Part shown: positions 16,918 through 56,231 of the stretch, piece after piece | Layout: the number at the start of each line of letters is the position of its first letter | Position numbering within the stretch: the stretch's first letter is position 1 | NCBI GenBank assembly: GCA_041651455.1 | Contig: JBAZJG010000004.1 | Coordinates: 72,848-136,847 of the forward strand | Source of the DNA: Candidatus Omnitrophota bacterium | GTDB taxonomy: Bacteria > Omnitrophota > Gorgyraeia > Pluralincolimonadales > Pluralincolimonadaceae | DNA: 64,000 nucleotides | Direction of reading: 5' to 3' | The notes under the pieces: model-generated | What the model saw: only the letters and a program-made list of their open reading frames with translations | What the model was told of the DNA's origin: nothing | Database searches by the model: none | Position numbers and translations under genes: made by a program

Positions 16918-18242
16918 AACGTATCTATCCGATCCTTAAGCTGCTTCTCGAAACCTATCTCGCCCGGCTCGTAATACCTCGACTTCCTTGGCATATACTC
17001 CTGCTCGACGAAATGGCCCTCGAAATCATGCGCGTATTTATATCCCTTGCCGTGCCCGAGTTCTTTGCCGTCCATCGACGAGTCCTTCAGGTGTGCGGGC
17101 ACTTCCATCACGCGGCCCTCCTCTACGTCCTTAAGCGCCTTCTCTATGCCGAGGTATGCCGAGTTGGATTTCGGCGCGCAGGCGATATACACAGCGGCCT
17201 CGGCCAGCGGTATCCTCGCTTCCGGAAGCCCTACGAACTCTGCGACCTGGAACGCCGCGTTCGCCACCACTATCGCCTGCGGGTCGGCAAGACCGACGTC
17301 CTCGGCCGCGCAAATTACTATCCTGCGCGCGATGAACCTCGGGTCTTCCCCCGCGTAAAGCATCTTCGCGAGCCAGTAGAGCACGGCATCCGGGTCGGAG
17401 CCGCGCATCGACTTGATGAACGCGGATATCGTGTCGTAGTGGCCGTCCTCGTCCTTGTCGTATACGACGGCCTTCTTCTGTATGCACTCCTCGGCGACCT
17501 TCAGCGTGATATCTACGGGGCCGTCCTTCGACGCCGGGGTCGTCAACGCGGCCAGTTCGAGCGCGTTCAGCGCCCTTCTCGCGTCGCCTTCGGAGAGTTT
17601 AGACAGGAACTCGACTGCCTGCTTATCCGCTTTTATCGGCATGTTCCCGAGGCCGCGCTCCTTGTCCTTTAGCGCGTTATACAATATCGCGGTTATATCC
17701 GCCTCGGTAAGGGCCTTGAGCTCGAATACGAGAGACCTCGATATCAGGGGTGCCACTATCGAGAAGAAAGGGTTGTATGTCGTCGCGCCTATAAGCACCA
17801 CGACCCCCGCTTCGACGTCCGGCATCAGGACATCCTGTTGCGCCTTGTTGAAACGGTGGATCTCGTCGACGAAGAGTATCGTCTTCCTGCCGTAAAGCGA
17901 GCGGCGCTGTTTAGCGGATTCTATCTCTTTCCTGAGTTCCTGTACGTTGGACGTGGTCGCGTTAAGCTGTACGAATTCGGATTTTGTTGCGTTGGATACT
18001 ACATGGGCGAGCGTCGTCTTTCCGGTGCCGGGAGGCCCGTAAAGGATAAGCGATGTGATAGTGTCCGCCTCGATCGCGCGGGAGAGGAGCTTCCCTTCCC
18101 CGATGATATGGGGCTGGCCCACGAACTCCTTCAGGCCGCGCGGCCTCATCCTTGCGGACAGGGGCTCGGTCCTGGAGGATTGCTTATTTTTCTTCTCGAA
18201 CAGGTCTTTCATAGATAATTTTTCCCCGCCATGCCGTCCCAT
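16893..18242 (-). CDS. rarA: replication-associated recombination protein A (AAA+ ATPase)
   Basis: Walker A GPPGTGKTT, Walker B ILFVDEIHRFNK, MgsA C-terminal helical domain. The true start is possibly the internal Met (MKDLFEK). Confidence 0.85.
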   Translation of the reverse strand: MGRHGGEKLSMKDLFEKKNKQSSRTEPLSARMRPRGLKEFVGQPHIIGEGKLLSRAIEADTITSLILYGPPGTGKTTLAHVVSNATKSEFVQLNATTSNVQELRKEIESAKQRRSLYGRKTILFVDEIHRFNKAQQDVLMPDVEAGVVVLIGATTYNPFFSIVAPLISRSLVFELKALTEADITAILYNALKDKERGLGNMPIKADKQAVEFLSKLSEGDARRALNALELAALTTPASKDGPVDITLKVAEECIQKKAVVYDKDEDGHYDTISAFIKSMRGSDPDAVLYWLAKMLYAGEDPRFIARRIVICAAEDVGLADPQAIVVANAAFQVAEFVGLPEARIPLAEAAVYIACAPKSNSAYLGIEKALKDVEEGRVMEVPAHLKDSSMDGKELGHGKGYKYAHDFEGHFVEQEYMPRKSRYYEPGEIGFEKQLKDRIDTLWKRKQKP

Positions 18243-18417
18243 CCCGATAATTTTTGAACCTAAGCTTTCGCTAAGGTGGGTGCCCTGTTAACGTTTTCAT
18301 GCCCCCCGATGGATCGGGGTCCGCAATCCGACGTTAAAGCCGGGCTCCCTATGTATTTTGGTGTTGGCTCAAAATACATCCGGACAGATCGAGCACAGCA
18401 GGGAAATTTTCAATAAA

Positions 18418-24451: not shown

Positions 24452-24528
24452 TGGTGGGCCTAAGAGGACTCGAACCTCTGACCTCTTCCATGTCAAGGAA
24501 GCGCTCTAACCAACTGAGCTATAAGCCC
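24452..24528 (-). tRNA. tRNA-Val (anticodon GAC)
   Basis: Cloverleaf with acceptor GGGCTTA/TAGGCCC, anticodon loop TTGACAT, T arm AGAGG-TTCGAGT-CCTCT, CCA encoded. Its own TTGACT-17-TATAAT promoter lies at 24542-24570. Confidence 0.85.
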
Positions 24529-24687: not shown

Positions 24688-25329
24688 TTATTTAACCGCT
24701 TTTTTCCTTAATCCGAGCAGCCCTACAAGGCCCGATCCGAGTAAAAGAAGGCTCGTCGGCTCGGGAACGGTAAACTGCGCGTCGTCGAACCACACCGTGC
24801 CGGTGGCGCTTGTGCCTGTCCCGGGAGCAAGCAGGGTCAGACGGTAGTCTATATACGCCGCGTTGGCAGGCGCTGTCCTCTCAGCCTCTGACCAGGAGCT
24901 TAAGCTCTGGTACTGCCAATCCCCCGAACCTGAGGTCTGATGGACTATACCTATGCCGCTTCCCAGCTCTTCCTGGCTTGCGTTAAGCCATTTGCACTCC
25001 AGGTACGCCTCTATGTTGCTGAGGTTCTCCCATTTCATCCATACGCCTCCGTCAACGACATCGCCGGGATTTACTGCGAAGATCTGCTTCGCTCCGGCCA
25101 TCTCCCATGAATCGGTCGTAGGACCGGCAGAAAGCTTCAGCGCCTGGCTGCCTTCGTGGACCGAATCGGCAGCGTCGTAATCGATCGTCCACTGCGGGCC
25201 CCAGTTGTAATCAAGCCACGGCCCCTGTCCTGCGCCTTCGAAACCGTAATCTCCGACAGCGTTTGCGCATGCAAAAGAAGGCATTGATATGGTCGTTAAA
25301 ACTGCTAATACGGTAAATAATCCCTTCAT
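24688..25329 (-). CDS. PEP-CTERM-anchored secreted protein with CBM4/9-like carbohydrate-binding domain
   Basis: Signal peptide. C-terminal VPEPTSLLLLGSGLVGLLGLRKKAVK has the PEP motif, a hydrophobic helix and a basic tail. Confidence 0.8.
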   Translation of the reverse strand: MKGLFTVLAVLTTISMPSFACANAVGDYGFEGAGQGPWLDYNWGPQWTIDYDAADSVHEGSQALKLSAGPTTDSWEMAGAKQIFAVNPGDVVDGGVWMKWENLSNIEAYLECKWLNASQEELGSGIGIVHQTSGSGDWQYQSLSSWSEAERTAPANAAYIDYRLTLLAPGTGTSATGTVWFDDAQFTVPEPTSLLLLGSGLVGLLGLRKKAVK

Positions 25330-25370: not shown

Positions 25371-25462
25371 TGTAAACGCTTACATATAAATCTAAAAAAT
25401 AGAGCGCTGTATGTAAGCGCTTACATTACTGAAATGTTATCATCCGTATCATTGAATGTCAA
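25371..25462 (-). promoter_or_regulatory. promoter (-35 TTGACA 25457-25462, -10 TAACAT 25434-25439) plus two cre/LacI-type palindromic operators: TGTAAGCGCTTACA (25412-25425) and TGTAAACGCTTACA (25371-25384)
   Basis: The first is a perfect 14 bp palindrome overlapping the predicted TSS. The second, imperfect copy sits ~40 nt upstream of the start codon. Confidence 0.5.
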
Positions 25463-26591: not shown

Positions 26592-27122
26592 TTAGTTTCC
26601 TTTTTCTATAGTAGCGTCAAAATCATCGAAACAGGCCTCACCTGTGGAACCGGCCACGCCTCTTGCGTATCCGAGCACCCTTGCTTCGATCGCTCCCGCA
26701 GGCGCTTTGCCGTTGACCTCCAGCTTCTTCCAGGCCGTGGCGCCCCTGATATGTTCGCTCTCTTTATGCCCTGAGCTCAAAGGGCCTGCGCTTCCCCAGA
26801 ACTCAAGCCGGACAAAGGCCTCGGCGCCGTTGGACAACGCTTTCGAGTCCGGGCTCATTACCCATGCGCTGGCTTTCACCATCTCGCCGGGATTGACCGG
26901 TATCTGCTGCCCATAACAACCCTGCCCTAATCCCTCGACCTGCCTGCATGCCGCTTTCTCCCCGCTGTATTTATACTCGGATGTCACTATCCCGCTCGTG
27001 GCCTGGTCGTTCCAGTTGTACCAGCTCTCCTCTTCCGATTCGAAGCCGGGATTGATCATGTCATTGGCATGGCAAGCGGAACATATCGACATGGCAATAA
27101 CCGCCGATAACAGCTTCTTCAC
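26592..27122 (-). CDS. secreted CBM4/9-like protein without PEP-CTERM anchor (GTG start)
   Basis: Signal peptide, MINPGFESEEESWYNW domain start, no C-terminal sorting signal. Co-transcribed with the 25953 gene. Confidence 0.5.
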   Translation of the reverse strand: MKKLLSAVIAMSICSACHANDMINPGFESEEESWYNWNDQATSGIVTSEYKYSGEKAACRQVEGLGQGCYGQQIPVNPGEMVKASAWVMSPDSKALSNGAEAFVRLEFWGSAGPLSSGHKESEHIRGATAWKKLEVNGKAPAGAIEARVLGYARGVAGSTGEACFDDFDATIEKGN

Positions 27123-27236
27123 TTGTTCACCTCCCTCCTTTACTCATAAAATAGTTTCTCATTACTAAATTGTTTTACTATACTGCAAAAATATACCACC
27201 TGCGCATACCATTGTCAAGCGTAATAAATTGTTATT

Positions 27237-28937
27237 TTATGGTGCTTTTTCCAGGGTAAGAGGATTGAATTTGTTCTTGGCGAATATGTACCATGAGGCC
27301 ACGGATACCGTCCCCATATCGGCCCTGCTCCAGTTATAGCCGCCTTCCCTGTTCGCAGTATACGGTATAGTACGGCCCTTCGCCCCCTTGATATTCCTGT
27401 CGACGAGGAAAGCATCCATCTGGTTGGCGTAGAAATACCCTCTTTCCTTGTCGCCTTCGGTAATATACGCGCACGCAATATGGCCTGTACCGTCAAGCCA
27501 TATATTGTTTATGTTTATGTCGGCATGATCGAAGAAACCCATAACTTCTTTGCCGTTCACATTCAACGTCTTGCGGTACCTGAGGTCATATTCCGGGATG
27601 TTCAACAGGGACGCCGTTCCTTTGCCGTATGCAAGGACCCTCCAGGTATAGTTATCCAGCGGAAGCGTATTGCCTTTCAGTACCGAATCGAGCCATATGC
27701 GTATCTTGTCGGCGTACGCGTCCTCCTTGCAGAGTTTTAGCGCGGCATAGCAATCGATATTGCCTTCCGGATGCCCGCCGTCCTCATGGAGCTTCTTGTC
27801 CCCGCTCCTCCATCCGTGCTGTATATAACCGCCTTTTCCGCCCGGATCGTCCTTATACCATGATATCAACAGGTCTTTCAGCATCCCCGTAATATCCCTG
27901 TATCTCTCCGGCCCGTATTCCTTCTCGTAATATTTGTACGCGATAAGAAGCCACGCCATGTCGCCCATCCAGCGGTCCGCCTTGCCGGGGTTATGGTACG
28001 CCGGAAGGTTCCCCTCGTTCCTTAGGTTCACGTACTGGAAGAACCCTCTCGCTTCCCCTTTATAAAAGAAATTCTGGTATGACGGGCACCTGTTATTCCT
28101 GTCCGTTGACTGGGCGTAGAAATCGAGTATGCGTTCCGCCCTTTCTTTTTCGCCCTTCAGGATGAACGCCATCGCGACGAGCGAATTATTGAACGTGTGC
28201 GCCTGATTATCTTCCGCGGTCGGGAGAAGCTGCTTGTCTTCGGAGAAGTTATCCTGGCACAGCTTGAGCCATTCCAATACGAGCGGGTCCTCCGGTACAA
28301 GCTCTGCGTCCCTTCTCTGCTTGAACCCGATGCCTTTCAGTTCCCTGTCCGGGTCAAGCACCGGGCCCACGACCGAGAATGAGGCCGGCAACCCCGGCTT
28401 GCCTAAACCGATCTCGTCCAGGTCCACCGTGCCTTTTCCCTTGCCGGAAAAAGCTATCTCCAGGTTAACAAGCTTATCGAACTTATCGTCCCCGCCCCAT
28501 CCGTATTCAAGGTTATTCCTGTATATCACGACCTCTGTCCAATCCGCATATTTGCCCCTCAGGGGGAATTTCCTGAAGAATACGGAGCCGTCCGCGTCGA
28601 CCAGCTTGATCTCCATGTCCGAAGACGAATCGGACTTGATCAGGAATGTCAAAGGGACATCCTCCGGCATTTTTTCCGTCATCTTCCTGCGTATAAGCAC
28701 CCAACCGTAATCACCCCTGAGCTCATACACCGCCCGGATACCGTCGTCCGACTTTCCCGGCGCGGAGGATATCTCTATGGTACTCTTCCCGTCCATATCG
28801 GCCTTCCACTGGCCAAGGTCGTCCCAGCTCGCCTTCGCGGGGGTTTGGGGCTGCGGCCCGGGTTTTTGCGCTTGCTCATACTCCTTGCAACCGGACACTA
28901 AAAGCAGTAACACCGCCAGACAGGCAACCTTCTTCAT
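27237..28937 (-). CDS. lipoprotein with N-terminal beta-sandwich domain and C-terminal six-hairpin glycosidase-like domain
   Basis: Lipobox LLLVSGC. Paralogous to 32517-34271 (shared WYIFAKNKFNP vs WYIFAKENFNPF motif). Glycosidase assignment is an inference, not motif-verified. Confidence 0.4.
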   Translation of the reverse strand: MKKVACLAVLLLLVSGCKEYEQAQKPGPQPQTPAKASWDDLGQWKADMDGKSTIEISSAPGKSDDGIRAVYELRGDYGWVLIRRKMTEKMPEDVPLTFLIKSDSSSDMEIKLVDADGSVFFRKFPLRGKYADWTEVVIYRNNLEYGWGGDDKFDKLVNLEIAFSGKGKGTVDLDEIGLGKPGLPASFSVVGPVLDPDRELKGIGFKQRRDAELVPEDPLVLEWLKLCQDNFSEDKQLLPTAEDNQAHTFNNSLVAMAFILKGEKERAERILDFYAQSTDRNNRCPSYQNFFYKGEARGFFQYVNLRNEGNLPAYHNPGKADRWMGDMAWLLIAYKYYEKEYGPERYRDITGMLKDLLISWYKDDPGGKGGYIQHGWRSGDKKLHEDGGHPEGNIDCYAALKLCKEDAYADKIRIWLDSVLKGNTLPLDNYTWRVLAYGKGTASLLNIPEYDLRYRKTLNVNGKEVMGFFDHADININNIWLDGTGHIACAYITEGDKERGYFYANQMDAFLVDRNIKGAKGRTIPYTANREGGYNWSRADMGTVSVASWYIFAKNKFNPLTLEKAP

Positions 28938-29149
28938 TGGTATCTCCTTTAGTATATGAGTTTCTTATTACTAAATTGTTTTACCAGTTAATAAAGATAC
29001 CACCGGAATAAGCTTTTGTCAAATATATATTATTTTGCGAAAAAGGGTGGAATGCGGGAAACGCCTAGAATAGAAAAAGGCTCCCAATTCCTGGAGCGGA
29101 AGGTTGGAAGCCTTTTTCGTCCCCCTACTTCTAACTTAACCTGCTTTAC

Positions 29150-29770
29150 TTATTTCTTTCTTCCTAATCCCATCAAACCAACAAGGCCTGAACCGAGAAG
29201 CAACAGGCTTGCGGGTTCCGGAACGGCAGCGACATCAAAGTTGAAGTTGTCAAAATCGCTTTCGCCGGGAACTTCATACGGATCATTCGCGTACGTACCG
29301 AACATGATCCTTGCCGTAACAGCATCGCTCGGAGCTACTATAACGCCGGTGTCCCCAAGGTTATACTGATCTCTTGTCAAGGCTTTCATGTCGACCATCG
29401 TCTTGCTCGCTAACGTACCATTAGCCCTAAGGAACTTGACTCCGATGTATGAACCCCAGCTGTTGGCAACCGTACCCGAAGGAACTAGCGCATAACCGGT
29501 AAGGTTATACGACTGTCCACCCGTGATGGCAACTTCCTGCTTCATACCGCCATCGTTGTAGTTATGAAGATTGTGAGTCCCGCTCACAGGGTTATCGGTT
29601 ACGACAACCTGGTTTTCCGCATTCCAACCGTCAGGCGCATCAGCTGACCAACCGTACGCATAATCTCCGTCTACCGAGATCTCAAAATCACCGTTGACCA
29701 ACAGGTTCGCGCTGGCTACACCAGGCACCAACAGTACCGCTAAGCTTACCAATGCTACTAATTTACCCAT
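29150..29770 (-). CDS. PEP-CTERM-anchored secreted protein with CBM4/9-like domain
   Basis: NLLVNGDFE start. C-terminal AVPEPASLLLLGSGLVGLMGLGRKK. Operonic with 29781-30413 (10 bp gap, RBS AAAGGAG). Confidence 0.8.
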   Translation of the reverse strand: MGKLVALVSLAVLLVPGVASANLLVNGDFEISVDGDYAYGWSADAPDGWNAENQVVVTDNPVSGTHNLHNYNDGGMKQEVAITGGQSYNLTGYALVPSGTVANSWGSYIGVKFLRANGTLASKTMVDMKALTRDQYNLGDTGVIVAPSDAVTARIMFGTYANDPYEVPGESDFDNFNFDVAAVPEPASLLLLGSGLVGLMGLGRKK

Positions 29771-29780
29771 CTTTCTCCTT

Positions 29781-30413
29781 TCACCCCTTTCTTTTTACCT
29801 TTCCCTTATTAAACAACCCTACTCCCAACAATCCACTGCCCAATAACAACATACTGGCGGGTTCCGGAATGGGGGTGGATTCAACGATGAGGTCATCAAA
29901 GATTCCCCTTCCGTCACCACTGCCAGTATTGTTTACTTCCCAAACCATTGTCGCCTTGACTATATCGGATCCGTAGTTTGACGGGGTCACTATAGCCGTC
30001 TTATCGTTCCAAACATTGTCCGTAAGCTCATTACCCGTAAGGCTACCGGTAGTCCACGTTCCTACTATAGAATCGTCCGAACGCTTGAATTCCACTCTTA
30101 ATGAGGCGGATGAACCGTTCCTAAGGGACTCGTTCCCGGCAACATCATCAAACAAATAACCCCCAATCTTATAGGTTGATCCTGGATCTGATATAGCGAT
30201 ATCCTGCCAGCCCGATGTTGCCCACCATCCCGCAGCGGAATAGCTTCCCGAGTTTCCCCAGGTATTTATAGTCGCATTTGTACCGTTCCACTGGCTCCAT
30301 CCGGTAAAATCCCCATTTTCAAACCCGGAGTTTGTCAGAAGATTGGCGTGCGCTATAGGATATGAAGATAACATCATTACAAGGACTGCTATTAATACGG
30401 CTTTTGTCTTCAT
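29781..30413 (-). CDS. PEP-CTERM-anchored secreted protein with CBM4/9-like domain
   Basis: NLLTNSGFENGDFTGW start. C-terminal IPEPASMLLLGSGLLGVGLF...KRKG. Confidence 0.8.
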   Translation of the reverse strand: MKTKAVLIAVLVMMLSSYPIAHANLLTNSGFENGDFTGWSQWNGTNATINTWGNSGSYSAAGWWATSGWQDIAISDPGSTYKIGGYLFDDVAGNESLRNGSSASLRVEFKRSDDSIVGTWTTGSLTGNELTDNVWNDKTAIVTPSNYGSDIVKATMVWEVNNTGSGDGRGIFDDLIVESTPIPEPASMLLLGSGLLGVGLFNKGKVKRKG

Positions 30414-30430
30414 TGCTTCTCAACCCCTTT

Positions 30431-30573
30431 ATCGATACGTGTTTATTAAACAAACGTAATAAACTGTTTCTTCATTCGGTTGATTTTGTATTTTAGAAGT
30501 TGCTATCGTAGAATATATATCGACACGTGTTTACGAATGCATATAATATACCTTAAGAATGTAAATGTGTCAA
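30431..30573 (-). promoter_or_regulatory. promoter (-35 TTGACA 30568-30573, -10 TATATT 30545-30550) plus two ACACGTGT-core operator repeats (30519-30532 and 30431-30444)
   Basis: ATCGACACGTGTTT sits at the predicted TSS and ATCGATACGTGTTT ~20 nt before the start codon. The core is a palindrome. Confidence 0.5.
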
Positions 30574-30620
30574 GAGAATTATATTGCTATTATATAGCAA
30601 ATAGTTGTTATATTGCAGAT

Positions 30621-30649
30621 AAGAAAACAGGGGAACATTTCTGTTCCCC
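30621..30649 (-). terminator. rho-independent terminator after PEP-CTERM gene 30693-31319
   Basis: GGGGAACA-gaaa-TGTTCCCC hairpin plus TGTTTTCTT. Confidence 0.65.
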
Positions 30650-30692
30650 TGTCCGGTTCTCCCTCGGGTTATTGGGGATTGAGGAAAAATAC

Positions 30693-31319
30693 CTACTTCT
30701 TGGCGCTCTTATTTCTTATTCCTATAATACCGATCAGGCCTGAACCGAGAAGCAACAGGCTGGCCGGTTCCGGTATCGGCTGCGTATCGATCATGAAATC
30801 ATCGAAAATACCGCGTCCGTCTCCAGAGCCGCTGTTATTGACCTCCCATACAAGAGTCGCATGGTCTATCCCTGCGCCATAGCTTGCCGGGGTCACTACA
30901 GCCGTCTTATCGTTCCACGTGTTGTCCGTCAGGTCGGCTCCTGTCATGTTACCGGTCGTCCAGGTGCCAACGATGTTGTTGGCCGCGTCCTTAAACTCAA
31001 CCCTTATCGATGCATAACCACCGTTCCTTAAGGACTCGTTCGCGGCAACGTCATCAAAGACGTAACCTCCGATCTTCACCGGCGTATTGGCGTCTGCAAT
31101 GATCGCATCCTGCCAGGCCGATGTCGCCCACCATCCTGCAGCAGAGTAATTTCCGGTACGTCCCCAGCTGTTGATAATAGCATTGGTGTCGTTCCACTGT
31201 CCCCAGTCGCTGAAGCTCCCCGTCTCAAATCCCGCGTTGCTGAGAAGATTTGCGGCGTCCGCCTGGGCCGGTATTACAAGAGCTGCTGCAAACAGAAGCA
31301 CTGCAACCAACTTTCCCAT
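30693..31319 (-). CDS. PEP-CTERM-anchored secreted protein with CBM4/9-like domain
   Basis: Start reset to MGKLVAVLLF (strong SD GGAAAGGAGG). C-terminal PIPEPASLLLLGSGLIGIIGIRNKSAKK. Confidence 0.8.
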   Translation of the reverse strand: MGKLVAVLLFAAALVIPAQADAANLLSNAGFETGSFSDWGQWNDTNAIINSWGRTGNYSAAGWWATSAWQDAIIADANTPVKIGGYVFDDVAANESLRNGGYASIRVEFKDAANNIVGTWTTGNMTGADLTDNTWNDKTAVVTPASYGAGIDHATLVWEVNNSGSGDGRGIFDDFMIDTQPIPEPASLLLLGSGLIGIIGIRNKSAKK

Positions 31320-31340
31320 ATCTTTTCCTCCTTTCCTCAA

Positions 31341-31463
31341 TTCGACACGTGTTGAGTTATTCATTACAATAATCCCTTGCCGGAATTATAGGGATTTATT
31401 TAGAGTGATTCGACACGTGTTTAATTGTTAATTTATTATGCATTAATTAAGTGCCTGTGTCAA
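31341..31463 (-). promoter_or_regulatory. promoter (-35 TTGACA 31458-31463, -10 CATAAT 31435-31440) plus two TTCGACACGTGTT operator repeats (31409-31421 and 31341-31353)
   Basis: Same architecture as the 30431-30573 unit. The repeats flank a small hairpin, ATCCCT-n12-AGGGAT, in the 5'UTR. Confidence 0.5.
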
Positions 31464-31494
31464 GATTAATATATTGCTTTTTTGTAGGACTAAT

Positions 31495-32517
31495 TTAGGC
31501 GGGCTTGACGGACTCCCTCCGGATGTATTCCGGAGTGAATATAACCGTATCATTCTCTACCTTTTTCCCCGATACTATATCCAAAAGCATCTGTGCGGCG
31601 GTCTTGCCTATCTCGACCAGCGGAAGCCTCATGGAACTTAACGTCGGAGATCCCGGGGGAAAAGGGAACATGTCGTTAAAACCTATTACCGAAATATGCT
31701 CGGGGACCGAAAGGCCGGCATCACGTATCCTTCTTATTGCGGCAAGCGCCATGACGTCGTCGGAAGCCACTATGCCGGTGATCCTCGGCTCCTGCTTCAA
31801 CAGGATCCCGGTAGCTTCGTATGCCTTCTCATAGATGAACAACCCTTCGGCCACGAGGTTTTCGTCGAATCCCGCGCCAGCTTCAGATAGCGCTTTTTTA
31901 TATCCGGCGAGCCTGTCCTGGTCGAGTTGGAACCTTAACGCGCCGCTGAGGAACGCTATCCTCTTATGGCCGGTGTCGAGCAATTCTTTTGTCGCCCTGA
32001 AAAGGCCTTCCTTGTTATCTATCAGGACTTTCGGTATCTTTATGCCCTTGATGTACCTGTTCACAAGCACTATCGGGAACTTCTTTTCGAAGAGCGTCGT
32101 CACATCCTTCTCGAGCGCCTCTTCGACAAGTATGCACATGCCGTCGACCCTTTTTTCTTCGAAGGCCTTCATGTAATACGGGGAAAGCGGCTCTTCTTTT
32201 GGCTTGATCGCGCGGGTCAACTGGAAATAATAACCGTTCTTCTCCAGCACTCCGGCGATACCGCTGACCACATGGCTGAAATACGAATAATATATGTCCT
32301 CGAAATCCTTTACCACCACGGCGATATTAAACGTCTTCCTGCTGACAAGGCTGCGGGCTATCACGTTAGGAGTGAAATCGAGGTCCGCGACCACCTTGCT
32401 GACCCTCTCCTGTGTCTTCTTGCCCACCTTCTGAAGGTCCTTCCCGTTAATGACCCTCGAGACGGTGCTTATGGACACTTTCGCCTTTTTGGCTATGTCT
32501 TTATATGTGTATGCCAT
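31495..32517 (-). CDS. LacI-family transcriptional regulator
   Basis: N-terminal HTH (YKDIAKKAKVSISTVSRVING) and periplasmic-binding-protein-like sugar-binding core. It is the last gene of the operon 34923 to 31495. Confidence 0.85.
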   Translation of the reverse strand: MAYTYKDIAKKAKVSISTVSRVINGKDLQKVGKKTQERVSKVVADLDFTPNVIARSLVSRKTFNIAVVVKDFEDIYYSYFSHVVSGIAGVLEKNGYYFQLTRAIKPKEEPLSPYYMKAFEEKRVDGMCILVEEALEKDVTTLFEKKFPIVLVNRYIKGIKIPKVLIDNKEGLFRATKELLDTGHKRIAFLSGALRFQLDQDRLAGYKKALSEAGAGFDENLVAEGLFIYEKAYEATGILLKQEPRITGIVASDDVMALAAIRRIRDAGLSVPEHISVIGFNDMFPFPPGSPTLSSMRLPLVEIGKTAAQMLLDIVSGKKVENDTVIFTPEYIRRESVKPA

Positions 32518-34271: not shown

Positions 34272-34923
34272 TCGATAACATGAAATCATCCAGGTATACG
34301 GTGGCTCCCGGGCCGTTGCCTACATCGGCTCCGAAGGCTATGCCGATATTGTCGAGAGATTTAACGTCTATGCCGGACTTGCGCAGTCCGGCTACGGATA
34401 TCGTTATCTTCTTCCATTCCTTCGTGGCCGATTCAACCGATATCTTTGTCTGCGGCATATAACTCGGCGCGTGGCTGTCCCTGAGGACTATTTCCATGTT
34501 CTCGCCGCCGTTCTCGCCCTTTACCCAGAACTCTATGTTCTTGAAGCCGGATATGTCCTTGCTCTTGACCTTCTTCGGGACTGGAACGGCATCGGTTACC
34601 GGGCCCATATCTATCGAAAAACTTCCCCATGCCTCTGATGCCTTGCTTCCGAGGGCGTTGACAAGTCGGAACGATTGCTTCCCGCTATGAACGTTCCTCA
34701 TATCATACCCCGGCACGTCCGGAGCATAGTACCAGCTGAACGGGGTGTTCTTGTCTTCCCAATTAGGTTCCAAAGACCCGTAGACCCCGACCTCGCCTCC
34801 GAGGTTGTTCGGATGGCCTTCAAAATCCGCTATGACTGTGATGCTCTCTTCGGAAAACGATTGCCCAGGAATAAAAAATATAGCGACAGTTACCGCCGCT
34901 ATAAGAAATATCAGTCCTTTCAT
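34264..34923 (-). CDS. secreted CBM-like (jelly-roll) protein
   Basis: Signal peptide. Domain resembles the beta-sandwich modules of the two glycosidase-like proteins. Preceded by a TTTACA-17-TATAAT promoter. Confidence 0.45.
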   Translation of the reverse strand: MKGLIFLIAAVTVAIFFIPGQSFSEESITVIADFEGHPNNLGGEVGVYGSLEPNWEDKNTPFSWYYAPDVPGYDMRNVHSGKQSFRLVNALGSKASEAWGSFSIDMGPVTDAVPVPKKVKSKDISGFKNIEFWVKGENGGENMEIVLRDSHAPSYMPQTKISVESATKEWKKITISVAGLRKSGIDVKSLDNIGIAFGADVGNGPGATVYLDDFMLSNE

Positions 34924-35014: not shown

Positions 35015-35668
35015 CTAGCTTTTCTTCCTTCTACCGAGACCGAGAAGCCCAATCAGCCCTGTACCGAGCAAGAGCATGCTTGCCGGTTCCGGAACGGGCG
35101 CAAACGACATGTCATCCACCCACAGCGTGCTGTTAGGCGAATACGCGCCGCTTGTCGAAAGGGCGACGACGGCAGATACCTTCGTCGTCCCTGCAGGGGC
35201 AGCCGCGGTCGTGACAGAGAGAGGGTGCCATGTGTCTGCCGTTACCGAGTTGTCGAATAAGGCACTCTCATCCACGCGGATGACGTTGCCAAGCGAGTTG
35301 TACCATTTGACCTGAAGCTTGGCTGAACTGCCGTCCTTAAGCGTATCAGCGGAATTCCACAGGAAATAACCATTCAGTAAGTAGGGGGCACTGAAATCGA
35401 TCCCTGTGAAGTCCTCGTTGAAATACGCATAATCGGTGTTGTTTCCGCCCCACATGACAACCTTCGCTGCCTTGGCGCCGCTCATTGCAACCGAAGAATC
35501 ATAGAATGAGTCGCCATTAACGCCGCCGCTCCACGTCCATGGGCCGTCCTTTAAAGCAATAGCCGATCCGCCGAGCTCAAAACCCGGATCGCTCAGGAGG
35601 TTGGCAGATGCCTGCGATGAAAACAAGCCGAATACCGCTACCATCAGTATTACCCTGAATATCTTCAT
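35015..35668 (-). CDS. PEP-CTERM-anchored secreted protein with CBM4/9-like domain
   Basis: Start reset to MKIFRV (SD AAAGGAGGTGA). C-terminal VPEPASMLLLGTGLIGLLGLGRRKKS. Confidence 0.75.
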   Translation of the reverse strand: MKIFRVILMVAVFGLFSSQASANLLSDPGFELGGSAIALKDGPWTWSGGVNGDSFYDSSVAMSGAKAAKVVMWGGNNTDYAYFNEDFTGIDFSAPYLLNGYFLWNSADTLKDGSSAKLQVKWYNSLGNVIRVDESALFDNSVTADTWHPLSVTTAAAPAGTTKVSAVVALSTSGAYSPNSTLWVDDMSFAPVPEPASMLLLGTGLIGLLGLGRRKKS

Positions 35669-35691
35669 TATCTCACCTCCTTTCATTTATT

Positions 35692-35778
35692 GGTTAAACG
35701 TTTTCCTTATAACCCTTTAAAAAAAGGAAAACGATTTCCTTTGCTTTGAAATTTTATCATATCCCAGAATAAAGTCAA
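35692..35778 (-). promoter_or_regulatory. promoter (-35 TTGACT 35773-35778, 16 nt spacer, -10 TAAAAT 35751-35756) plus two GGAAAnCGTTT operator-like repeats (35726-35739, 35692-35706)
   Basis: GGAAATCGTTTTCC and GGAAAACGTTTAACC both have an AACGTT-type centre typical of LacI/PurR-family operators. Confidence 0.45.
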
Positions 35779-38129: not shown

Positions 38130-38972
38130 CTATTTGCTTTCCTTTTCCGTTTCCTGTTTAAGCATGAACAGGTTCGCGGTGCTCAAGAATACCAGGGAAT
38201 CGGTAATGAAAGATGTGACTATGCCCGCGGCAAGTATATACAAGGTGATTTCCGGGAAGGTCAGGTTCATCAGCCCCTGCTGCTTCTGCTTGACAAACAT
38301 GAACAATACTTCCAGCAGCCTCGGTATGGACACGAGCAGTATGGTAGTAAAAAAGACGTGCTTTACGATGCCGAAAGACCGCGCGATCGCCCCGAACACT
38401 CCCCTGCGTTCGACCATCAACGCCGGATATGCGTAAATGAAGAGCGCTTCCACTAGGAACGCGACCGCTATTCCCGCATACGACAATACCTGCAGCAACA
38501 TTACCGACGAAGGGGTGCGTTGCATGGTAGAGGTTATTATCCAGGTAGGCGCTTTAAGTATGGCGAATGACAGGATATATATAATAGCCCATATCCCGAG
38601 CAGCGCGAAGTACCTTCTTGCCGCCCTGTTGAAACTCCCGAACGCGCGCACGCCTTCGCCTTCGGAATGCGCCTGAGAGACCATCGCAACCGCCATGCCG
38701 TACATTATGACGCCGAATATGACCATGACGAGCACCTGTCCGTAATAGAAAAGGGTCGGAAGGATATTGAAATTATACGGATAGTGCAGGTAGGCCGCCC
38801 CGAATATATTCTTTATGGGCTTGGCAAATACGGCCGTGAACGGCGGGCGCGGCGAATAGAACAATACCGCAAGCACGATGCCTTCAAAAATCGCTTTAAA
38901 CAGGAAAGGCAACAGGACGGCCGGATATTTCGCGACCATCCTGAAAGTTATCGCCCAAACAGTCCTAATCAT
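38130..38972 (-). CDS. polytopic membrane protein of unknown function
   Basis: Six to eight predicted TM helices and no recognisable motif. In the exosortase operon. Confidence 0.4.
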   Translation of the reverse strand: MIRTVWAITFRMVAKYPAVLLPFLFKAIFEGIVLAVLFYSPRPPFTAVFAKPIKNIFGAAYLHYPYNFNILPTLFYYGQVLVMVIFGVIMYGMAVAMVSQAHSEGEGVRAFGSFNRAARRYFALLGIWAIIYILSFAILKAPTWIITSTMQRTPSSVMLLQVLSYAGIAVAFLVEALFIYAYPALMVERRGVFGAIARSFGIVKHVFFTTILLVSIPRLLEVLFMFVKQKQQGLMNLTFPEITLYILAAGIVTSFITDSLVFLSTANLFMLKQETEKESK

Positions 38973-39429
38973 TCTCGAACGACTTCTTTATTACCAGTAT
39001 CTTCTTCTTGAGGTCGGCTTCCTGCTTTTCATCATCAACGAACGATACGCCGACATCATATTTTCCCGGTTCCTGTTCCACGGGAGGCTTGACCCAGCTG
39101 ACCTTTACCAGCGTCTTTACCGGTTCTATATCATTTCCGGGCATTATATCCAGGGTTATGTGCATCTCGGGCACCAGATCCTTATTAAACTCTTCGCCAT
39201 TACCGTTATCTTCCTTAAGCCTGCATTTCGAATTATGGACCCATCCCAGGCAGTTTGAGCAGCTGATGCAATCCCATGAGCGCGGCCACTCAAGCAAGGC
39301 ACCCCCCTCACTTAAGTTCTTTGCTTTCAACGGGATATCACCAGAAATATCTATCTTCTTCTGAGGATCTACAAGCTTCCCCTTAATAGCAACATTTATT
39401 TCGACACGTTTAAACTTTCTGCGTTCCAA
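38965..39429 (-). CDS. PilZ-domain (c-di-GMP-binding) protein, first gene of the exosortase operon
   Basis: RRKFKR ... NLSEGGA, i.e. the RxxxR / DxSxxG PilZ motifs. Start reassigned to TTG at 39429 (SD AAGGAG 6 nt upstream), because a TTGACA-16-TATACT promoter at 39463-39490 places the track start upstream of the TSS. Confidence 0.6.
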   Translation of the reverse strand: MERRKFKRVEINVAIKGKLVDPQKKIDISGDIPLKAKNLSEGGALLEWPRSWDCISCSNCLGWVHNSKCRLKEDNGNGEEFNKDLVPEMHITLDIMPGNDIEPVKTLVKVSWVKPPVEQEPGKYDVGVSFVDDEKQEADLKKKILVIKKSFEND

Positions 39430-39462
39430 GTTTTTCTCCTTGTACACCAAATTTAGAAGTTT

Positions 39463-39490
39463 AGTATAACACAAAAGTAAACCGTGTCAA
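39463..39490 (-). promoter_or_regulatory. sigma70-type promoter of the PilZ-exosortase operon (-35 TTGACA, 16 nt spacer, -10 TATACT)
   Basis: Near-consensus hexamers in the 31 bp gap after the araC-like gene. Confidence 0.5.
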
Positions 39491-39505: not shown

Positions 39506-40336
39506 TTATGCCGTAATAATTTGCTTTTCCACCCCCTTTTTCAGTATACTGCTCCTGTATTCGATCGGAGACGTTTTCATATATCTTTTGAAAACTTTGC
39601 TGAAATAATTGGGGTCCTGATACCCGACAGCGTAAGCTATCTGGTTCACGTTAAGGTTCCTGTTCTTCAGCATCTTGGACGCAGCTTCCATCCTTATCTT
39701 CGTCAGGTATTCGATAAAGGTTATCTTCAACTCGTCCTTGAATATATGGCTGAAATAGTAATGGCTCAGGGCCACTTCAGACGCTACCTTCTGGAGCGAT
39801 ATGTCCTTATCATGGTAATTCTTCCGTATGAATGTCACGGCTTTCAGGACGGCTTCCTGGTTGCGTGAGTACTGCTTGTCCGATTCCGTTACGACAAGGA
39901 AATCAAATTCATGCTTGAATATGTAGTTCACCATGATGGACAGCAGGTCTGCCGCGGCCTTAACCTGTTCCTTCTTGAGGTCCTGTGATGAACTTGGCGC
40001 CTGGGCGGGACACATCATAACGCCGCCTATGGCCTTGTCTCCGATCATTATAGGGATGAAAGCCATCTGCAATTTTTTGTATTCGCAAAGACACGGTTTT
40101 TTTGAGCTTCCTGCCGCCGCGCAGGATTTGCCGACGAGATCAAGGAACGCGCTGTCTTTTTTCTTTGAGGAGAGGATCGATTTGCATGAATGGCCGGCAA
40201 GCTGGGGTATAATGACGGGCCTGCCTTTCAGGTCGATGAACGAGAACTCCATCCCCGTCAGCTTCAGGAAGGCGCTCTCTACGTCCTGGAGGACTTTTGT
40301 GCTTGCGATCCCTTTAATGGCCAGTGAGCATTCCAT
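39506..40336 (-). CDS. AraC-family transcriptional regulator with N-terminal sensor domain
   Basis: C-terminal double HTH (YHDKDISLQKVASEVALSHYYFSHIFK ... VNQIAYAVGYQDPNYFSKVFKRYMKTSP). Confidence 0.8.
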   Translation of the reverse strand: MECSLAIKGIASTKVLQDVESAFLKLTGMEFSFIDLKGRPVIIPQLAGHSCKSILSSKKKDSAFLDLVGKSCAAAGSSKKPCLCEYKKLQMAFIPIMIGDKAIGGVMMCPAQAPSSSQDLKKEQVKAAADLLSIMVNYIFKHEFDFLVVTESDKQYSRNQEAVLKAVTFIRKNYHDKDISLQKVASEVALSHYYFSHIFKDELKITFIEYLTKIRMEAASKMLKNRNLNVNQIAYAVGYQDPNYFSKVFKRYMKTSPIEYRSSILKKGVEKQIITA

Positions 40337-52600: not shown

Positions 52601-54217
52601 TTACTCTTCCTTCATGTCCAGGATTCTCATCAGGTCCTTCTGCATTGCTTTCGACCGTTTTTCCGTGACGGGCGGTGTCAGCTCTACTCCGCCGGACTTC
52701 TCTATTTCGTGCTCTACGATCGGGTCGATCTTCCGTGTCCTGTCAATGCTCTCCTGGTATTTTTGCCTGGATATGTTCTGGCGGTTATCGCTTGTAAGTA
52801 TATGGGGCGTTATAAAAACCAGCACCTCTTTTTTCACGTCCTGGTACGACTTGTTCTGGAACAACAGCCCTATTATCGGGATGTCGCCGATCAGGGGCAC
52901 TTTGTTTATCGTGCTCTTCTTGTCGTTCTTAATGAGCCCGCCGAGTATTATCGTCTCGCCGTCCTTGACCATCATCGTCGTATCTGCCTGCGTCGTGTCC
53001 TTGGCGACGACGTTATCAACCTCGGCGACCCTTCTTGCCGTACTGACCTCGGGATGTATCTTCATCGTCACATAATTATCTTCGCCTATCTGCGGGGTCA
53101 CTTCCAGCTTGATACCTACGTCGACATATTTGATGTCCTGGACCAGCAATTTCGTGACCGGGTCCGTCGTAGCTACCGCGTAGGGCTCGCTGCTACCTAC
53201 GAGGATGTTCGCCGCTTCTCCGTCGATGACAACAATGCGCGGGCTCGAGAGGACCTCCGTGTTCGCATCGCTCTTGAGCGCTTCCAATGTCACCGTATAC
53301 TCGTCGGGGGTCAGGCCGCCTATCTTATATATGCCTCCGGTCCCGCCGGTGGCCAGGTTGATCCCGAAATCGGTCAGGAGATCGAGCGCTCCGGGGTTGT
53401 GGTGCGGGTCCTCCCCGGTCCTGTCATATGCATGCTCCCATTCAATCCCGAATTTCATAGTATCATCGAGAGTGATCTCCACAATCATCGCTTCTATCAT
53501 GACCTGCTTATGCTGGGAGTCCCATCCCTCGATGAAGCTGTCTATATTCTTCAGGATCACCGGGGTGGCCCTAACGACTATCGTGTTCGTCCTCTCATCT
53601 ATATATACATCTCCTTTTTCTTTCGGTATCAGCTGCGTAAGCTTGGCTTCCATGTCCGCCGCCTTGGAATAAAGGAGCTTATACTTCTTTATCTCCGTCT
53701 GTTGGTCGAGCTGCATCAGCGCTTCCTCGACCTCTTTAACCTTTTCCGGCGTGTCGGTTATTATTACCTGGTTACTCTTCTCGTTCGTCTCTATCCTGCC
53801 GCGCGCGGTCTTCATCGAAAGGAGTATCCGCTTAAGGTCCGCGACATCCGTGTAATTCAGCGTTATGACCTTCGTCTGCAGGTTAACGAACCTCTCCTGC
53901 TGCTGGGTATCCTGGTATGAATATACGGTTATTATCCCGTCGGTAACCGAATAGAGGTAGTTGTTCGCCTTCAGGACCGAATCGAGCGCCTGGACTACCG
54001 TGACCTTGTCGAGTTTCACGGAGACATTCCCGGTCACGTTAGTGCTAAGCACGACGCTCATCCCGCTCTGGTCCGCGATCATCTTAAGGACCTCTTCTAT
54101 GCTGACGTTCTGGACATCGAGCGTGACTTCTCCGTCTTCGGCGAACAGCGGGCAACGGGAGACCAAAAGGAAGACCGAAAATACAAGGCAGAACAACAGT
54201 TGTTTACTGAATCTCAT
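52601..54217 (-). CDS. secretin (GspD/PilQ family outer-membrane channel)
   Basis: Signal peptide, N0 and secretin-N (NolW-like) domains, and C-terminal secretin domain (VPLIGDIPIIGLLFQNKSYQDVKKEVLVFITPHIL). Confidence 0.75.
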   Translation of the reverse strand: MRFSKQLLFCLVFSVFLLVSRCPLFAEDGEVTLDVQNVSIEEVLKMIADQSGMSVVLSTNVTGNVSVKLDKVTVVQALDSVLKANNYLYSVTDGIITVYSYQDTQQQERFVNLQTKVITLNYTDVADLKRILLSMKTARGRIETNEKSNQVIITDTPEKVKEVEEALMQLDQQTEIKKYKLLYSKAADMEAKLTQLIPKEKGDVYIDERTNTIVVRATPVILKNIDSFIEGWDSQHKQVMIEAMIVEITLDDTMKFGIEWEHAYDRTGEDPHHNPGALDLLTDFGINLATGGTGGIYKIGGLTPDEYTVTLEALKSDANTEVLSSPRIVVIDGEAANILVGSSEPYAVATTDPVTKLLVQDIKYVDVGIKLEVTPQIGEDNYVTMKIHPEVSTARRVAEVDNVVAKDTTQADTTMMVKDGETIILGGLIKNDKKSTINKVPLIGDIPIIGLLFQNKSYQDVKKEVLVFITPHILTSDNRQNISRQKYQESIDRTRKIDPIVEHEIEKSGGVELTPPVTEKRSKAMQKDLMRILDMKEE

Positions 54218-56231
54218 TCGTGATCTCCTTTGTGGCGCGGACGGTCTTGTTCTTGCCTTCCGCCTTTGCCCTGTACAGCGCCCTGTCGACGTACTTTATC
54301 AGGTCGGTCTTATCCAAAGCGATATCCGGATAGCTCGCGACGCCGAAACTTGCGGTCAGGCCTATTACATTGTCCTTGTTGCCGAACGCGTAATTCTTTA
54401 TGACCATCCTGATCCTGTCCGCGAGTATATAGGCGCCCTCGAGGTCGGTCTCCGGCAGGATGACGGCGAACTCTTCCCCGCCGTACCTTGCCACGACATC
54501 GACTTCCCTGCATATCTTCCTCAATATCTGCGCGATCTCTTTAAGGACCTCGTCGCCCATCGGATGGCCGTAGCTGTCATTGACCTTCTTGAACCCGTCG
54601 AGGTCCATCATTATGAGGCCGAACGTCTGCCTGTACCTTGCCGAACGCAGTATCTCCTTGTCCATCGCCTCGCTGAAATACCTGTAGACATAAAGCCCCG
54701 TCAGCCCGTCGGTGATCGACAGCTCCGTGATCTTCTTGTGCAATAACGTATTGTTTATCGCTATGCTGGAATGGCGGGAAATTATCGAGAATATCCTTAG
54801 GTCTTCGCCGCTGAAAGCGTTCGGGAATGAATTTGTCACCGCAAGCATGCCGATCGGCCTGTCGCCGGCCGTTAGAAGGTGGGCCTGGAACGAGCTGAGA
54901 ATATTCCTGTTTTCAGAAAAAGAATCGCTCAGGTTGTTGCTATCGGCCTGATCGATCGAAACCTGTTCCGGCAACAGTCTCCCCCCTGTTAACCTATTGA
55001 ACGTTTCTATGATCTTAAGCTTAAAACTGTCGACCTCCTTCTGCGAAGCGGGGTATTTAACCTCCACTATCACGCCCGTCTTCTTTGTCTCGTCGACAAA
55101 TAACAAACCGCACAGATGACAATCCAGGGAGCGTTCTATTATCTCCAGTATCGCATCTATAATTTCTTTATAATCAAGCCTTGCGTATATTATATTACTA
55201 ACTTCCTGCGATATTGTCAACTCATATAATTCGTCATCGAGCGAACGGGCTATATCGGCGAATATCTTCTTCCCGGTCTTGAGTTTTTCTATCTGTGTGT
55301 TCGCTTCCTCGAGGCGTTTTTGCCAATGGGACGATTCTATGGCTATCGATATCTCGTTCGTCAGGATCGTGAGCAGCGAAAGGTCGTATTCGGTGAATTG
55401 TTCTTTTGATGCCTTGTTATTCACGTTTATGACCCCGATGACCTTGTCCTTTACCCGTATCGGGGCGCTCAGGAGGGATGAATTGTAATACCTGTTCGAA
55501 TTCTGCCTCGAGAAACGCTCGTCTGATTCGACGTCCTTGATGAGCAGCGGGCTGCCGGACTTCGCAACCCAGCCGGATATGCCCCTGCCGACCTTGATCC
55601 TTGTCTTGTTCGCAAGGTCTTCGCTCAATCCCCTCGACGCGCTTATTATAAGTTCCTGGGAATCGTCATCGATGAGCATGAGCGATCCAAGCTCAGAGCT
55701 CAACATGTTGGTTATCTTCTCGAGCACCTCGCCAAGGATATCCCTGGCATGGGATGAGTGCAGGCTCTGCGACGCCTGATAAGCATCTACGAGCCTGGCC
55801 ATGAGCTTCTTGAACTGCTCGCTTTGGGACTGGAATTTGTTCGTATCTACGCGGCCTTTAATCTTCTCTATCGCGGCGTCTATATTCGCGTCAAAATCGT
55901 TCTTGTTGGTAAACCTTATGACGCTCTGCCCCCGTTGGGGTCTCATCCCGAGGGACCTGTACGCTTCCTTCTCGTTGGTTATACAGATCAGGAGCGGGAT
56001 ATCGGAGGTACGCGGGTCATCTTTAAGCAGTTTATATACGCAAAATCCGTTTATGTCCGTGACGGCAGGATTCAGCAGGATAAGGTCGGGCATCTCCTCG
56101 CAGACAAGCTCTATCCCATCGAGGCCGTTCGAGGCGCGCAGTACGTTATAGTCCCTGCCCGCAAGGACAGCTGACATGTCCTGGGCTATGTTCTGGCTTT
56201 GCTCTATTATTACGGCTTTTTTCCTGTCCAA
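54204..56231 (-). CDS. REC(pseudo-receiver)-GAF-GAF-GGDEF diguanylate cyclase
   Basis: GGEEF active site, two GAF domains. N-terminal receiver has Asn (LILLNP) at the phospho-acceptor position. Start reassigned to TTG at 56231 (SD GGAGG). Confidence 0.75.
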   Translation of the reverse strand: MDRKKAVIIEQSQNIAQDMSAVLAGRDYNVLRASNGLDGIELVCEEMPDLILLNPAVTDINGFCVYKLLKDDPRTSDIPLLICITNEKEAYRSLGMRPQRGQSVIRFTNKNDFDANIDAAIEKIKGRVDTNKFQSQSEQFKKLMARLVDAYQASQSLHSSHARDILGEVLEKITNMLSSELGSLMLIDDDSQELIISASRGLSEDLANKTRIKVGRGISGWVAKSGSPLLIKDVESDERFSRQNSNRYYNSSLLSAPIRVKDKVIGVINVNNKASKEQFTEYDLSLLTILTNEISIAIESSHWQKRLEEANTQIEKLKTGKKIFADIARSLDDELYELTISQEVSNIIYARLDYKEIIDAILEIIERSLDCHLCGLLFVDETKKTGVIVEVKYPASQKEVDSFKLKIIETFNRLTGGRLLPEQVSIDQADSNNLSDSFSENRNILSSFQAHLLTAGDRPIGMLAVTNSFPNAFSGEDLRIFSIISRHSSIAINNTLLHKKITELSITDGLTGLYVYRYFSEAMDKEILRSARYRQTFGLIMMDLDGFKKVNDSYGHPMGDEVLKEIAQILRKICREVDVVARYGGEEFAVILPETDLEGAYILADRIRMVIKNYAFGNKDNVIGLTASFGVASYPDIALDKTDLIKYVDRALYRAKAEGKNKTVRATKEITNEIQ

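Follow-up and report, generated by a model that had tools for sequence, protein, structure and literature searches.

What are two identical 13-nucleotide (nt) repeats doing between the promoter and the start codon of a gene for a secreted surface protein, and why do close copies of them reappear in front of the next genes along? This is the question raised by a stretch of 64,000 nt from a Candidatus Omnitrophota bacterium (contig JBAZJG010000004.1, positions 72,848 to 136,847), which we call the window and whose own numbering we use throughout, with the genes of the locus lying on its minus strand. To our knowledge nothing is known about transcriptional control in the Omnitrophota, a phylum without a cultured model, and our statements about where transcription starts, about binding by a protein, repression, the kind of inducer and co-regulation are predictions from sequence. 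On that footing, the repeats are most probably a pair of operators for a repressor, serving a regulon of at least three lectin-like genes.

The box pair and its conservation

The original prediction for this region described two exact direct copies of a 13-mer behind a TTGACA-17-CATAAT promoter, with ATCCCT-n12-AGGGAT between them, all in front of a PEP-CTERM gene, and each of these is indeed there. The 13-mer TTCGACACGTGTT is present in two exact copies (31409-31421 and 31341-31353), the promoter runs from 31463 to 31435 on the minus strand ahead of both, the ATCCCT/AGGGAT stretch occupies 31372-31395, and gene 30693-31319 encodes a product of 208 residues with a PEP-CTERM domain (Pfam PF07589). 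Read in the minus sense from 31500 to 31317, the order is AGCAATATATTAATC, TTGACA, a 17-nt spacer, CATAAT, 11 nt, TAAACACGTGTCGAA (box 1), the ATCCCT-n12-AGGGAT stretch, TCAACACGTGTCGAA (box 2), a GGAGG ribosome-binding site and the ATG at 31319. We call this promoter P1 and the related one behind its gene P2, both of them close to the consensus of the sigma-70 type; in the features below, a dot marks the centre of a box, and CBM stands for carbohydrate-binding module.

31464-31478, minus strand: A/T-rich block AGCAATATATTAATC, conserved, abutting the -35 hexamer on its upstream side
31458-31463, minus strand: P1 -35 hexamer TTGACA, present in every promoter found
31435-31440, minus strand: P1 -10 hexamer CATAAT, after a 17-nt spacer; start site predicted at about 31428
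31409-31424, minus strand: box 1 (O1), TTAAACAC·GTGTCGAA, central CG at 31416-31417, about +12 from the predicted start site
31372-31395, minus strand: inverted repeat between the boxes, ATCCCT (31372-31377), 12-nt spacer, AGGGAT (31390-31395); possible leader hairpin, specific to the P1 class
31341-31356, minus strand: box 2 (O2), CTCAACAC·GTGTCGAA, central CG at 31348-31349, about +80, a few nt ahead of the ribosome-binding site
31327-31334, minus strand: ribosome-binding site AAAGGAGG of gene 30693-31319
30693-31319, minus strand: gene 1, secreted beta-sandwich (CBM-like) protein with a PEP-CTERM sorting signal
30625-30654, minus strand: terminator-like hairpin closing the gene 1 unit
30545-30573, minus strand: P2 promoter, TTGACA (30573 to 30568), 17-nt spacer, TATATT (30550 to 30545); start site predicted at about 30538
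30520-30533, minus strand: P2 box 1, TAAACAC·GTGTCGA, centre about +12; 13-mer copy ATCGACACGTGTT at 30519-30531
30432-30445, minus strand: P2 box 2, TAAACAC·GTATCGA, degenerate, about 17 nt ahead of the start codon; 13-mer copy ATCGATACGTGTT at 30431-30443
29150-30413, minus strand: genes 2 and 3, the PEP-CTERM paralogue 29781-30413 and the PEP-CTERM gene 29150-29770
31495-32517, minus strand: adjacent LacI-family gene, last of an operon that also holds a CBM30 gene and a gene for a 590-residue protein; its stop codon lies 32 nt before P1

The true start of gene 1 is the ATG at 31319 and not the upstream ATG at 31364, which puts the P1 box centres about 98 and about 30 nt before the start codon, and box 1 lies 11 nt past the -10 hexamer. 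It had also been proposed that two neighbouring operons share the operator. The sharing stands, in that copies differing from TTCGACACGTGTT by one or two mismatches sit behind P2 at 30519-30531 and 30431-30443, but gene 1 is no operon: a terminator-like hairpin follows it, and it is therefore a single-gene unit. Genes 2 and 3 are separated by just 10 nt (AAGGAGAAAG) and are therefore taken as co-transcribed, and the product of gene 2 is 63% identical in amino acid sequence to that of gene 1.

How far do the boxes stand out from their surroundings? With up to two mismatches to the 13-mer there are five matches in the window where 1.02 would be expected, a number that none of 100 shuffles reached, and the 8-mer core ACACGTGT occurs three times against an expectation of 0.23. 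The motif itself is a CG-centred quasi-palindrome of 14-16 bp, T(A/C)(A/G)ACAC·GTGT(C/T)(G/T)A, and a scan of the 64 kb with the degenerate 14-mer returns the four sites behind P1 and P2 only. The fifth, weak match to the 13-mer (39400-39412) is coding sequence, for KRVE of a PilZ-like protein, is identical in the related locus L035 (we number such loci L001, L002 and so on) and is taken as chance. The two half-sites agree at five of seven positions at 31410-31423 and at six of seven at 31342-31355, perfect palindromic forms exist in relatives (TAAACACGTGTTTA, box 1 of L012, and TCGACACGTGTCGA, box 2 of L024), and the central CG is found in all 27 distinct boxes.

Those relatives came from three sources. 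A box-pair scan of 185,579 genomes, with a pattern that forced AACACGTRTCGA in both boxes, gave one true relative, the syntenic metagenome-assembled genome (MAG) L001, the rest being unrelated minisatellites and one chance coding match: the hits in Acidobacteriota, Verrucomicrobiales and Prevotellaceae were rejected as minisatellites of 20-42 bp, and the hit in Sedimenticola as coding sequence. As an aside, the minisatellites with ACACGTGT have periods of 20, 21 and 42 bp and lie at L002 6312-6975, L007 5597-5820 and L010 at about 4440-4700, in MAGs of Acidobacteriota, Prevotellaceae and Verrucomicrobiales. A metagenome scan with the pattern TCTTGACA-N33-35-TAAACACGTGT gave ten loci, all of them genuine relatives, and protein-based look-ups added L012, L035/36, L037/38 and L039. 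Loci L015-L024 come from samples of the anaerobic-digester type. The metagenome pattern required TCTTGACA; the TTGACA is unforced in L001, L012 and L037. Altogether there are 17 distinct box-bearing promoter regions, which fall into three paralogous classes (P1 behind the LacI gene, P2 behind the gene that P1 serves, and P3 in L022 and L039), with a rearranged form in L037 as one more; the genes behind all of them encode secreted PEP-CTERM or CBM-like proteins.

In the genes behind these promoters, the window and its relatives agree at only 42-74% of third codon positions. The boxes change little or not at all and form the most conserved blocks of both leaders. An alignment across the P1, P2 and P3 classes is still possible at the hexamers of the promoter, at the block upstream of them and at the boxes, and nowhere else. 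Judged from these alignments, the boxes are under selection. Their placement is equally regular. Without exception 34 nt separate the -35 hexamer from box 1, although gaps of 33-35 were open to the search and L012 came in by a route of its own, through its protein, and box 2 always ends 15-36 nt ahead of the start codon, just before the ribosome-binding site. It might be argued that the repeats are functionless leftovers of a tandem duplication of gene and leader, given that genes 30693-31319 and 29781-30413 are paralogous (63% amino acid identity) and their leaders homologous. We find this very hard to believe, in view of leader flanks that have diverged beyond alignment between classes around boxes that remain identical, and of boxes that persist in at least 17 distinct promoter regions as well as in the rearranged L037 form. 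The further proposal that the two units answer to a common regulator and form a small regulon is, by contrast, in line with the conservation of the boxes, their recurrence in three promoter classes and the location of box 1 where a repressor operator would be expected.

DNA operators or leader RNA

Do the boxes work as DNA or as RNA? Two copies of a palindrome are automatically complementary once transcribed, and the two readings are thus partly confounded. One could imagine that box 1 pairs with box 2 in the mRNA leader and closes a 5' domain holding the hairpin, which would stabilise the transcript or modulate its translation. Indeed, in the predicted fold of the P1 leader CAAUU is joined to AAUUG and the two boxes to each other, from transcript nt 2 onwards (-23.2 kcal/mol, z = -2.2), the P1 box 1-box 2 duplex is worth -13.6 to -22.6 kcal/mol, one pair is changed on both sides in L012, and box 2 always adjoins the ribosome-binding site. 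Against this, the RNAalifold covariation term is close to zero (+0.31), only one pair in 24 is compensatory, and the stems never vary. The box duplexes of P2 and P3 reach only -7.3 to -10.1 kcal/mol across loops of about 20-75 nt, and the P2 leader is no more stable than its shuffles (z = +0.34). The ribosome-binding site is unpaired in all predicted folds, and neither a terminator nor an alternative that sequesters that site was found among them. Rfam, searched over the whole window at gathering score, gave no match at this leader, and a permissive search of 30300-31600 returned only chance-level hits (E > 1).

The rearranged locus L037, where the adjacent LacI has 76% identity, is particularly instructive. 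At its P1 position (3609-3643) TATAAT is directly followed by TTCGAAACGTG-n8-CACGTTTCGAA, with the two units inverted, and the first arm overlaps the -10 hexamer and the start site and would be largely untranscribed, which is awkward for any element that acts in RNA. This inverted and largely untranscribed arm, the LacI-type palindromes in sister promoters of the locus (described below), the perfect palindromic forms in L012 and L024 and the failure of the RNA models to extend beyond P1 all make us favour a DNA operator over an RNA element; we are rather confident that the boxes function at the level of DNA, and regard a role in the leader transcript as a long shot.

What, then, of the stem-loop between the boxes, which the original prediction placed in the leader RNA? 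It can form, and the ATCCCT/AGGGAT stem is kept in all six orthologous P1 leaders around a loop that differs in sequence and in length (12-14 nt), a pattern that suggests some constraint. As a structure it is weak, with -7.8 kcal/mol, z = -1.05 and only three G-C pairs on its own; no U-run follows it in the window sequence, the invariant stem offers no covariation, and the hairpin is absent from the P2, P3 and L037 leaders. It is therefore best treated as a feature of the P1 class that stands outside the shared operator system.

The mechanism that we have in mind is a familiar one. The boxes would be DNA operators for a sequence-specific, trans-acting repressor that recognises the half-site T(A/C)(A/G)ACAC. 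A protein sitting on box 1, at about +12, would block formation of the open complex or escape from the promoter, and box 2 would be an auxiliary, weaker operator that contributes through cooperative binding or as a roadblock. The same protein would control at least two transcription units, 30693-31319 on the one hand and 29781-30413 with 29150-29770 on the other. The targets are exosortase-sorted, CBM-like proteins, and the inducer is therefore probably a sugar or a glycan fragment.

Several observations sit uneasily with this repressor model. The loci with boxes all come from one narrow clade of Omnitrophota (LacI identity of at least 76%), which makes for few independent observations, and the DNA searches could return only loci with TAAACACGTGT in box 1 or, in the other scan, with AACACGTRTCGA in both boxes, a source of ascertainment bias. 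Of the 27 distinct boxes, 26 have the same promoter-distal CGA end, box 2 is variable at its inner positions, and the outer CGA/AAA asymmetry is conserved among boxes, none of which would be predicted by a simple symmetric-dimer model. In L037 the two 14-mers abut, a tight fit for two dimers of the LacI type. In addition, the centres of the two boxes are 68-71 bp apart in P1, 88-89 bp in P2, 35 bp in P3 and 14 bp in L037. These distances do not keep to the helical repeat, and simple looping is therefore unsupported.

Some further features of these leaders deserve a mention in their own right. P2 leaders keep a block at 30495-30504, AGCAACTTCT(G/A)AAA, and an inverted repeat GTTTATTA-n8-TAATAAAC (30440-30464) that shares sequence, on its 3' arm, with the left half of box 2. 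In L021 (8927-9140) the P2 promoter and boxes directly drive an orthologue of the 29150-29770 type, the middle paralogue being missing. On the opposite strand, the box end TCGACA is followed after 16-18 nt by TATAAT, TATTAT or TACAAT, giving promoter-like matches of up to 11 of 12 positions on the plus strand at 30520-30547, 31410-31439 and 31342-31370, with a -10 region shared with the sense promoter. These matches could reflect divergent antisense transcription, or could be the reason for the conserved CGA end.

The regulator and the sister promoters

It is harder to say which protein binds the boxes. Our Pfam survey, which covered the listed open reading frames of the window with at least 150 residues that were not dismissed as spurious, found two genes for DNA-binding regulators only, the LacI gene and a PocR-AraC gene. 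The obvious candidate is the adjacent LacI, as a repressor of P1 and P2 that would have the genes of both as its local regulon. It is the product of the only LacI-family gene in the window, P1 starts 32 nt past the end of that gene, LacI, P1 and P2 follow one another in this order in every close relative whose sequence extends far enough, and the boxes are CG-centred in the manner of LacI-family operators.

The orthologues of this LacI tell a different story. Orthologues down to 49% identity share its recognition helix (VSISTVSRVIN) and its hinge (NVIARSLVSRKT), and those down to 51% always come with boxes of another class, GGAAAnCGnTTTCC, including autoregulatory ones. Such boxes separate the promoter from the start codon of LacI in L025 and L027 (59% identity) and in L037 (76%, same clade), where the LacI gene has its own promoter and carries AGGAAAACGTTTTCT before its start codon (2505-2519); they precede the CBM30-LacI operon in L029 (51%) and the PEP-CTERM gene that heads the cluster in L013 (63%). 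In the more distant orthologue loci, those outside the clade, there is no ACACGTGT box, so that proteins sharing the helix VSI(S/T)TVSRVIN and the hinge NVIARSLVSRKT occur with GGAAAnCGnTTTCC and with no ACACGTGT box nearby; put differently, the orthologues of the one LacI in the window co-occur with GGAAAnCGnTTTCC, and outside one clade not with ACACGTGT. The window itself has boxes of the GGAAAnCGnTTTCC type (the GGAAA class) at 35726-35739 and 35693-35706, in the leader of the PEP-CTERM gene 35015-35686, and a third at 34852-34865, just inside the CBM30 gene. These contexts lead us to assign the adjacent LacI to the GGAAA class, and the three window sites are likely to be its operators. Half-sites of the one class are distinct from those of the other at positions 3, 6 and 7, and the box promoters of L019, L022 and L039 have no LacI gene in the sequence directly upstream. 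All in all, we think it unlikely that the adjacent LacI is the protein that reads ACACGTGT.

The sister promoters of the locus add another dimension. On the same scaffold they have palindromes of the classical type with a CG at the centre, namely GGAAAnCGnTTTCC, TGTAAGCGCTTACA and ATGTTACCGGTAACA, both in the window (35778 and 25462) and in L013, L025 and L033: at 35778 GGAAATCGTTTTCC is centred 18 nt past the -10 hexamer, as box 1 is, at 25462 TGTAAGCGCTTACA is centred 15 nt past it, and in both a second copy of the palindrome lies further down the leader. A block of roughly A(G/A)CAAT(A/T)TAnTnnTC abuts TTGACA in all of the PEP-CTERM and CBM promoters of the locus (31464-31478 at P1, 30574-30590 at P2, and equivalents at the promoters 35778, 29022, 27218 and 25462) and is absent from the tRNA promoter (24570) and from the promoter of the CBM30-LacI operon (34972); it may be an UP element or the site of a common activator. 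By analogy with these sister promoters the regulator is likely to belong to the LacI family, and the most likely candidate is a paralogue encoded outside the window. Our leaning, held with some confidence, is towards operators for a trans-acting repressor that is not the adjacent LacI (31495-32517).

A few details of the sister leaders are recorded here as observations. The leader of the PEP-CTERM gene 24688-25329 has the cre-like perfect palindrome TGTAAGCGCTTACA at 25412-25425 and a second copy, TGTAAGCGTTTACA, at 25371-25384, and the right half of TGTAAGCGCTTACA is part of a terminator-like hairpin, AGCGCT-n7-AGCGCT with a T-run (25421 to 25403). The leaders of 27237-28937 and 26592-27122 share (A/G)GTAAAACAATTTAGTAAT (28967-28985 and 27161-27179), which resembles AGTAAAACATTTTACT ahead of a second LacI gene in L029, with similar sites in L039. 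At about 9750-9990 in L033, two ATGTTACCGGTAACA palindromes precede a homologue of the gene 1 protein with 55% identity, which places another operator class on a related gene, and a gene for a LacI of 353 residues lies 8 kb away. At the more distant homologues of gene 1 (L031-L034), ACACGTGT boxes are lacking.

The only other DNA-binding regulator of the survey, PocR-AraC (39506-40336), brings us to a rather different idea. AraC tolerates rearrangement of its half-sites and looping between them, and the unit that matters might be the asymmetric CACGT(G/T)TCGAA with its 5' flank, read by a flexible two-domain regulator of which PocR-AraC would be one example. This would account for the invariant CGA end and the consistent asymmetry, for the presence of two units at every promoter, and for spacings of 14, 35, 68-71 and 88-89 bp with units that are direct in P1-P3 and inverted in L037, and the AraC-family gene is conserved in relatives. 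Set against these attractions, all of the sites lie downstream of the -10 hexamer, whereas activators of the AraC family usually bind over the -35 or further upstream, some relatives have perfectly palindromic boxes, the sister promoters have ordinary LacI-type palindromes in the corresponding places, and there is no box near the AraC gene, the weak match at 39400-39412 being coding sequence of the next gene. We therefore regard a flexible regulator of this kind as doubtful.

A bolder synthesis can be offered, to which we would give only a slim chance. Here, a single promoter chassis, made up of the common upstream block and the sigma-70 hexamers and shared by the PEP-CTERM lectin-like genes of the clade, would have had at least four operator specificities swapped in at the +12 and pre-ribosome-binding-site positions. 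The ACACGTGT class would be read by a flexible regulator (PocR-AraC being one candidate) in place of a LacI-type dimer, through direct or inverted units 14-89 bp apart that all lie downstream of the start site, and complementarity between the O1 and O2 RNA of P1 would add stabilisation of the 5' end. If this were true, every carbohydrate-binding protein sorted by the exosortase would be switched by a ligand of its own.

Known systems and neighbouring features

How does an operator pair of this sort compare with what is already known? In Escherichia coli the main lac operator, a CG-centred quasi-palindrome with one half-site better conserved than the other, is centred at about +11/+12, and an auxiliary operator lies further downstream. 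The arrangement here resembles that of lac O1/O2/O3 in having box 1 at about +12, an auxiliary box downstream, a CG-centred quasi-palindrome and unequal half-sites. It departs from lac in spacings of 35-89 bp that are out of helical phase across promoter classes and in the core ACACGTGT, which is unlike the lac operator; a tetramer or a loop is unsupported here. [quoted passage not shown] Our boxes share with the regulons of that RegPrecise collection an even palindrome, imperfect in the window, the central CG, the distance from the start codon (about 98 and about 30 nt at P1, within 30-140 bp) and carbohydrate-related targets, and sister promoters at the locus carry canonical motifs of that type. 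Here, however, half-site position 3 is C/G where A/T is usual, the neighbouring LacI appears to own a different motif, and the targets are surface carbohydrate-binding proteins instead of catabolic enzymes and transporters.

Other comparisons are looser. The pairs of half-sites bound by AraC (I1, I2 and O2) likewise consist of two asymmetric units at variable distance, and our units are reversed in L037 with an AraC-family gene in the cluster; unlike the AraC pairs, they are predicted from sequence, none of them lies upstream of the -10 hexamer, and each has a dyad symmetry of its own. The operator eilOc of EilR, a regulator of the TetR family, is AAAGTTGGACACGTGTCCAACTTT, a palindrome of 24 bp (PMC6127294). 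It has the ACACGTGT core in common with our boxes, and GACACGTGTC matches box 2 of L024; it is longer, has different flanks and belongs to an unrelated organism. Since an EilR operator shares the core, the core alone does not name the family of the regulator.

In Proteobacteria, PEP-CTERM genes are controlled by RpoN with PrsK-PrsR (PMC9850573), which is the one studied paradigm for such genes that our literature search found. Text searches of the literature gave no paper on the regulation of PEP-CTERM genes in Omnitrophota and none that joins PEP-CTERM genes with LacI operators. The targets are comparable, in that they are PEP-CTERM exosortase substrates beside an EpsH/EpsI cluster; the logic of this locus differs, with promoters of the sigma-70 type and operators downstream of the start site. 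A sigma-54 (-24/-12) promoter was rejected, given the presence of TTGACA-17-CATAAT and TTGACA-17-TATATT and a GG...GC in the P1 spacer that is mis-spaced and lost in L001, and PrsK and PrsR were not found among the window proteins surveyed. That TTGACA-type promoters are in use in this organism is suggested by the tRNA gene 24455-24528, which lies directly behind a TTGACT-17-TATAAT match.

The element is in the end a conventional one, of a familiar kind with a new motif in an unstudied phylum, and its value is mainly descriptive. What makes the locus appealing is its apparent logic, in which strong sigma-70-type promoters would be held off by operator pairs and neighbouring, paralogous genes for surface carbohydrate-binding proteins would each be placed under a different class of operator. 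If confirmed, this would provide a ready set of promoter and operator parts, and the testable hypothesis that cells display different glycan-binding proteins according to the sugar at hand.

The products of the box-bearing promoters look sugar-binding. The AlphaFold model of the gene 1 protein is a beta-sandwich (pLDDT, the model's confidence score, of 85), and its best structural matches are the sugar-binding domain of Fbs1, CBM61 and CBM16. Upstream of P1 in the sense of transcription come an exosortase cluster, with glycosyltransferases, PocR-AraC, a PilZ-like gene, a TPR gene, EpsH and EpsI, and then the operon of CBM30, the 590-residue protein and LacI. Elsewhere in the window there is a 6S RNA gene (18219-18407, minus strand; Rfam RF00013, 96 bits). 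A weak PilZ-like gene (38965-39474, minus strand) adjoins PocR-AraC (39506-40336, minus strand), and a gene for a REC-GAF-GGDEF diguanylate cyclase (54204-56264, minus strand) lies in or beside the exosortase/polysaccharide cluster; the cyclase and PilZ-like genes together provide a hint, from their predicted domains, that the exosortase cluster may be under the control of cyclic di-GMP.

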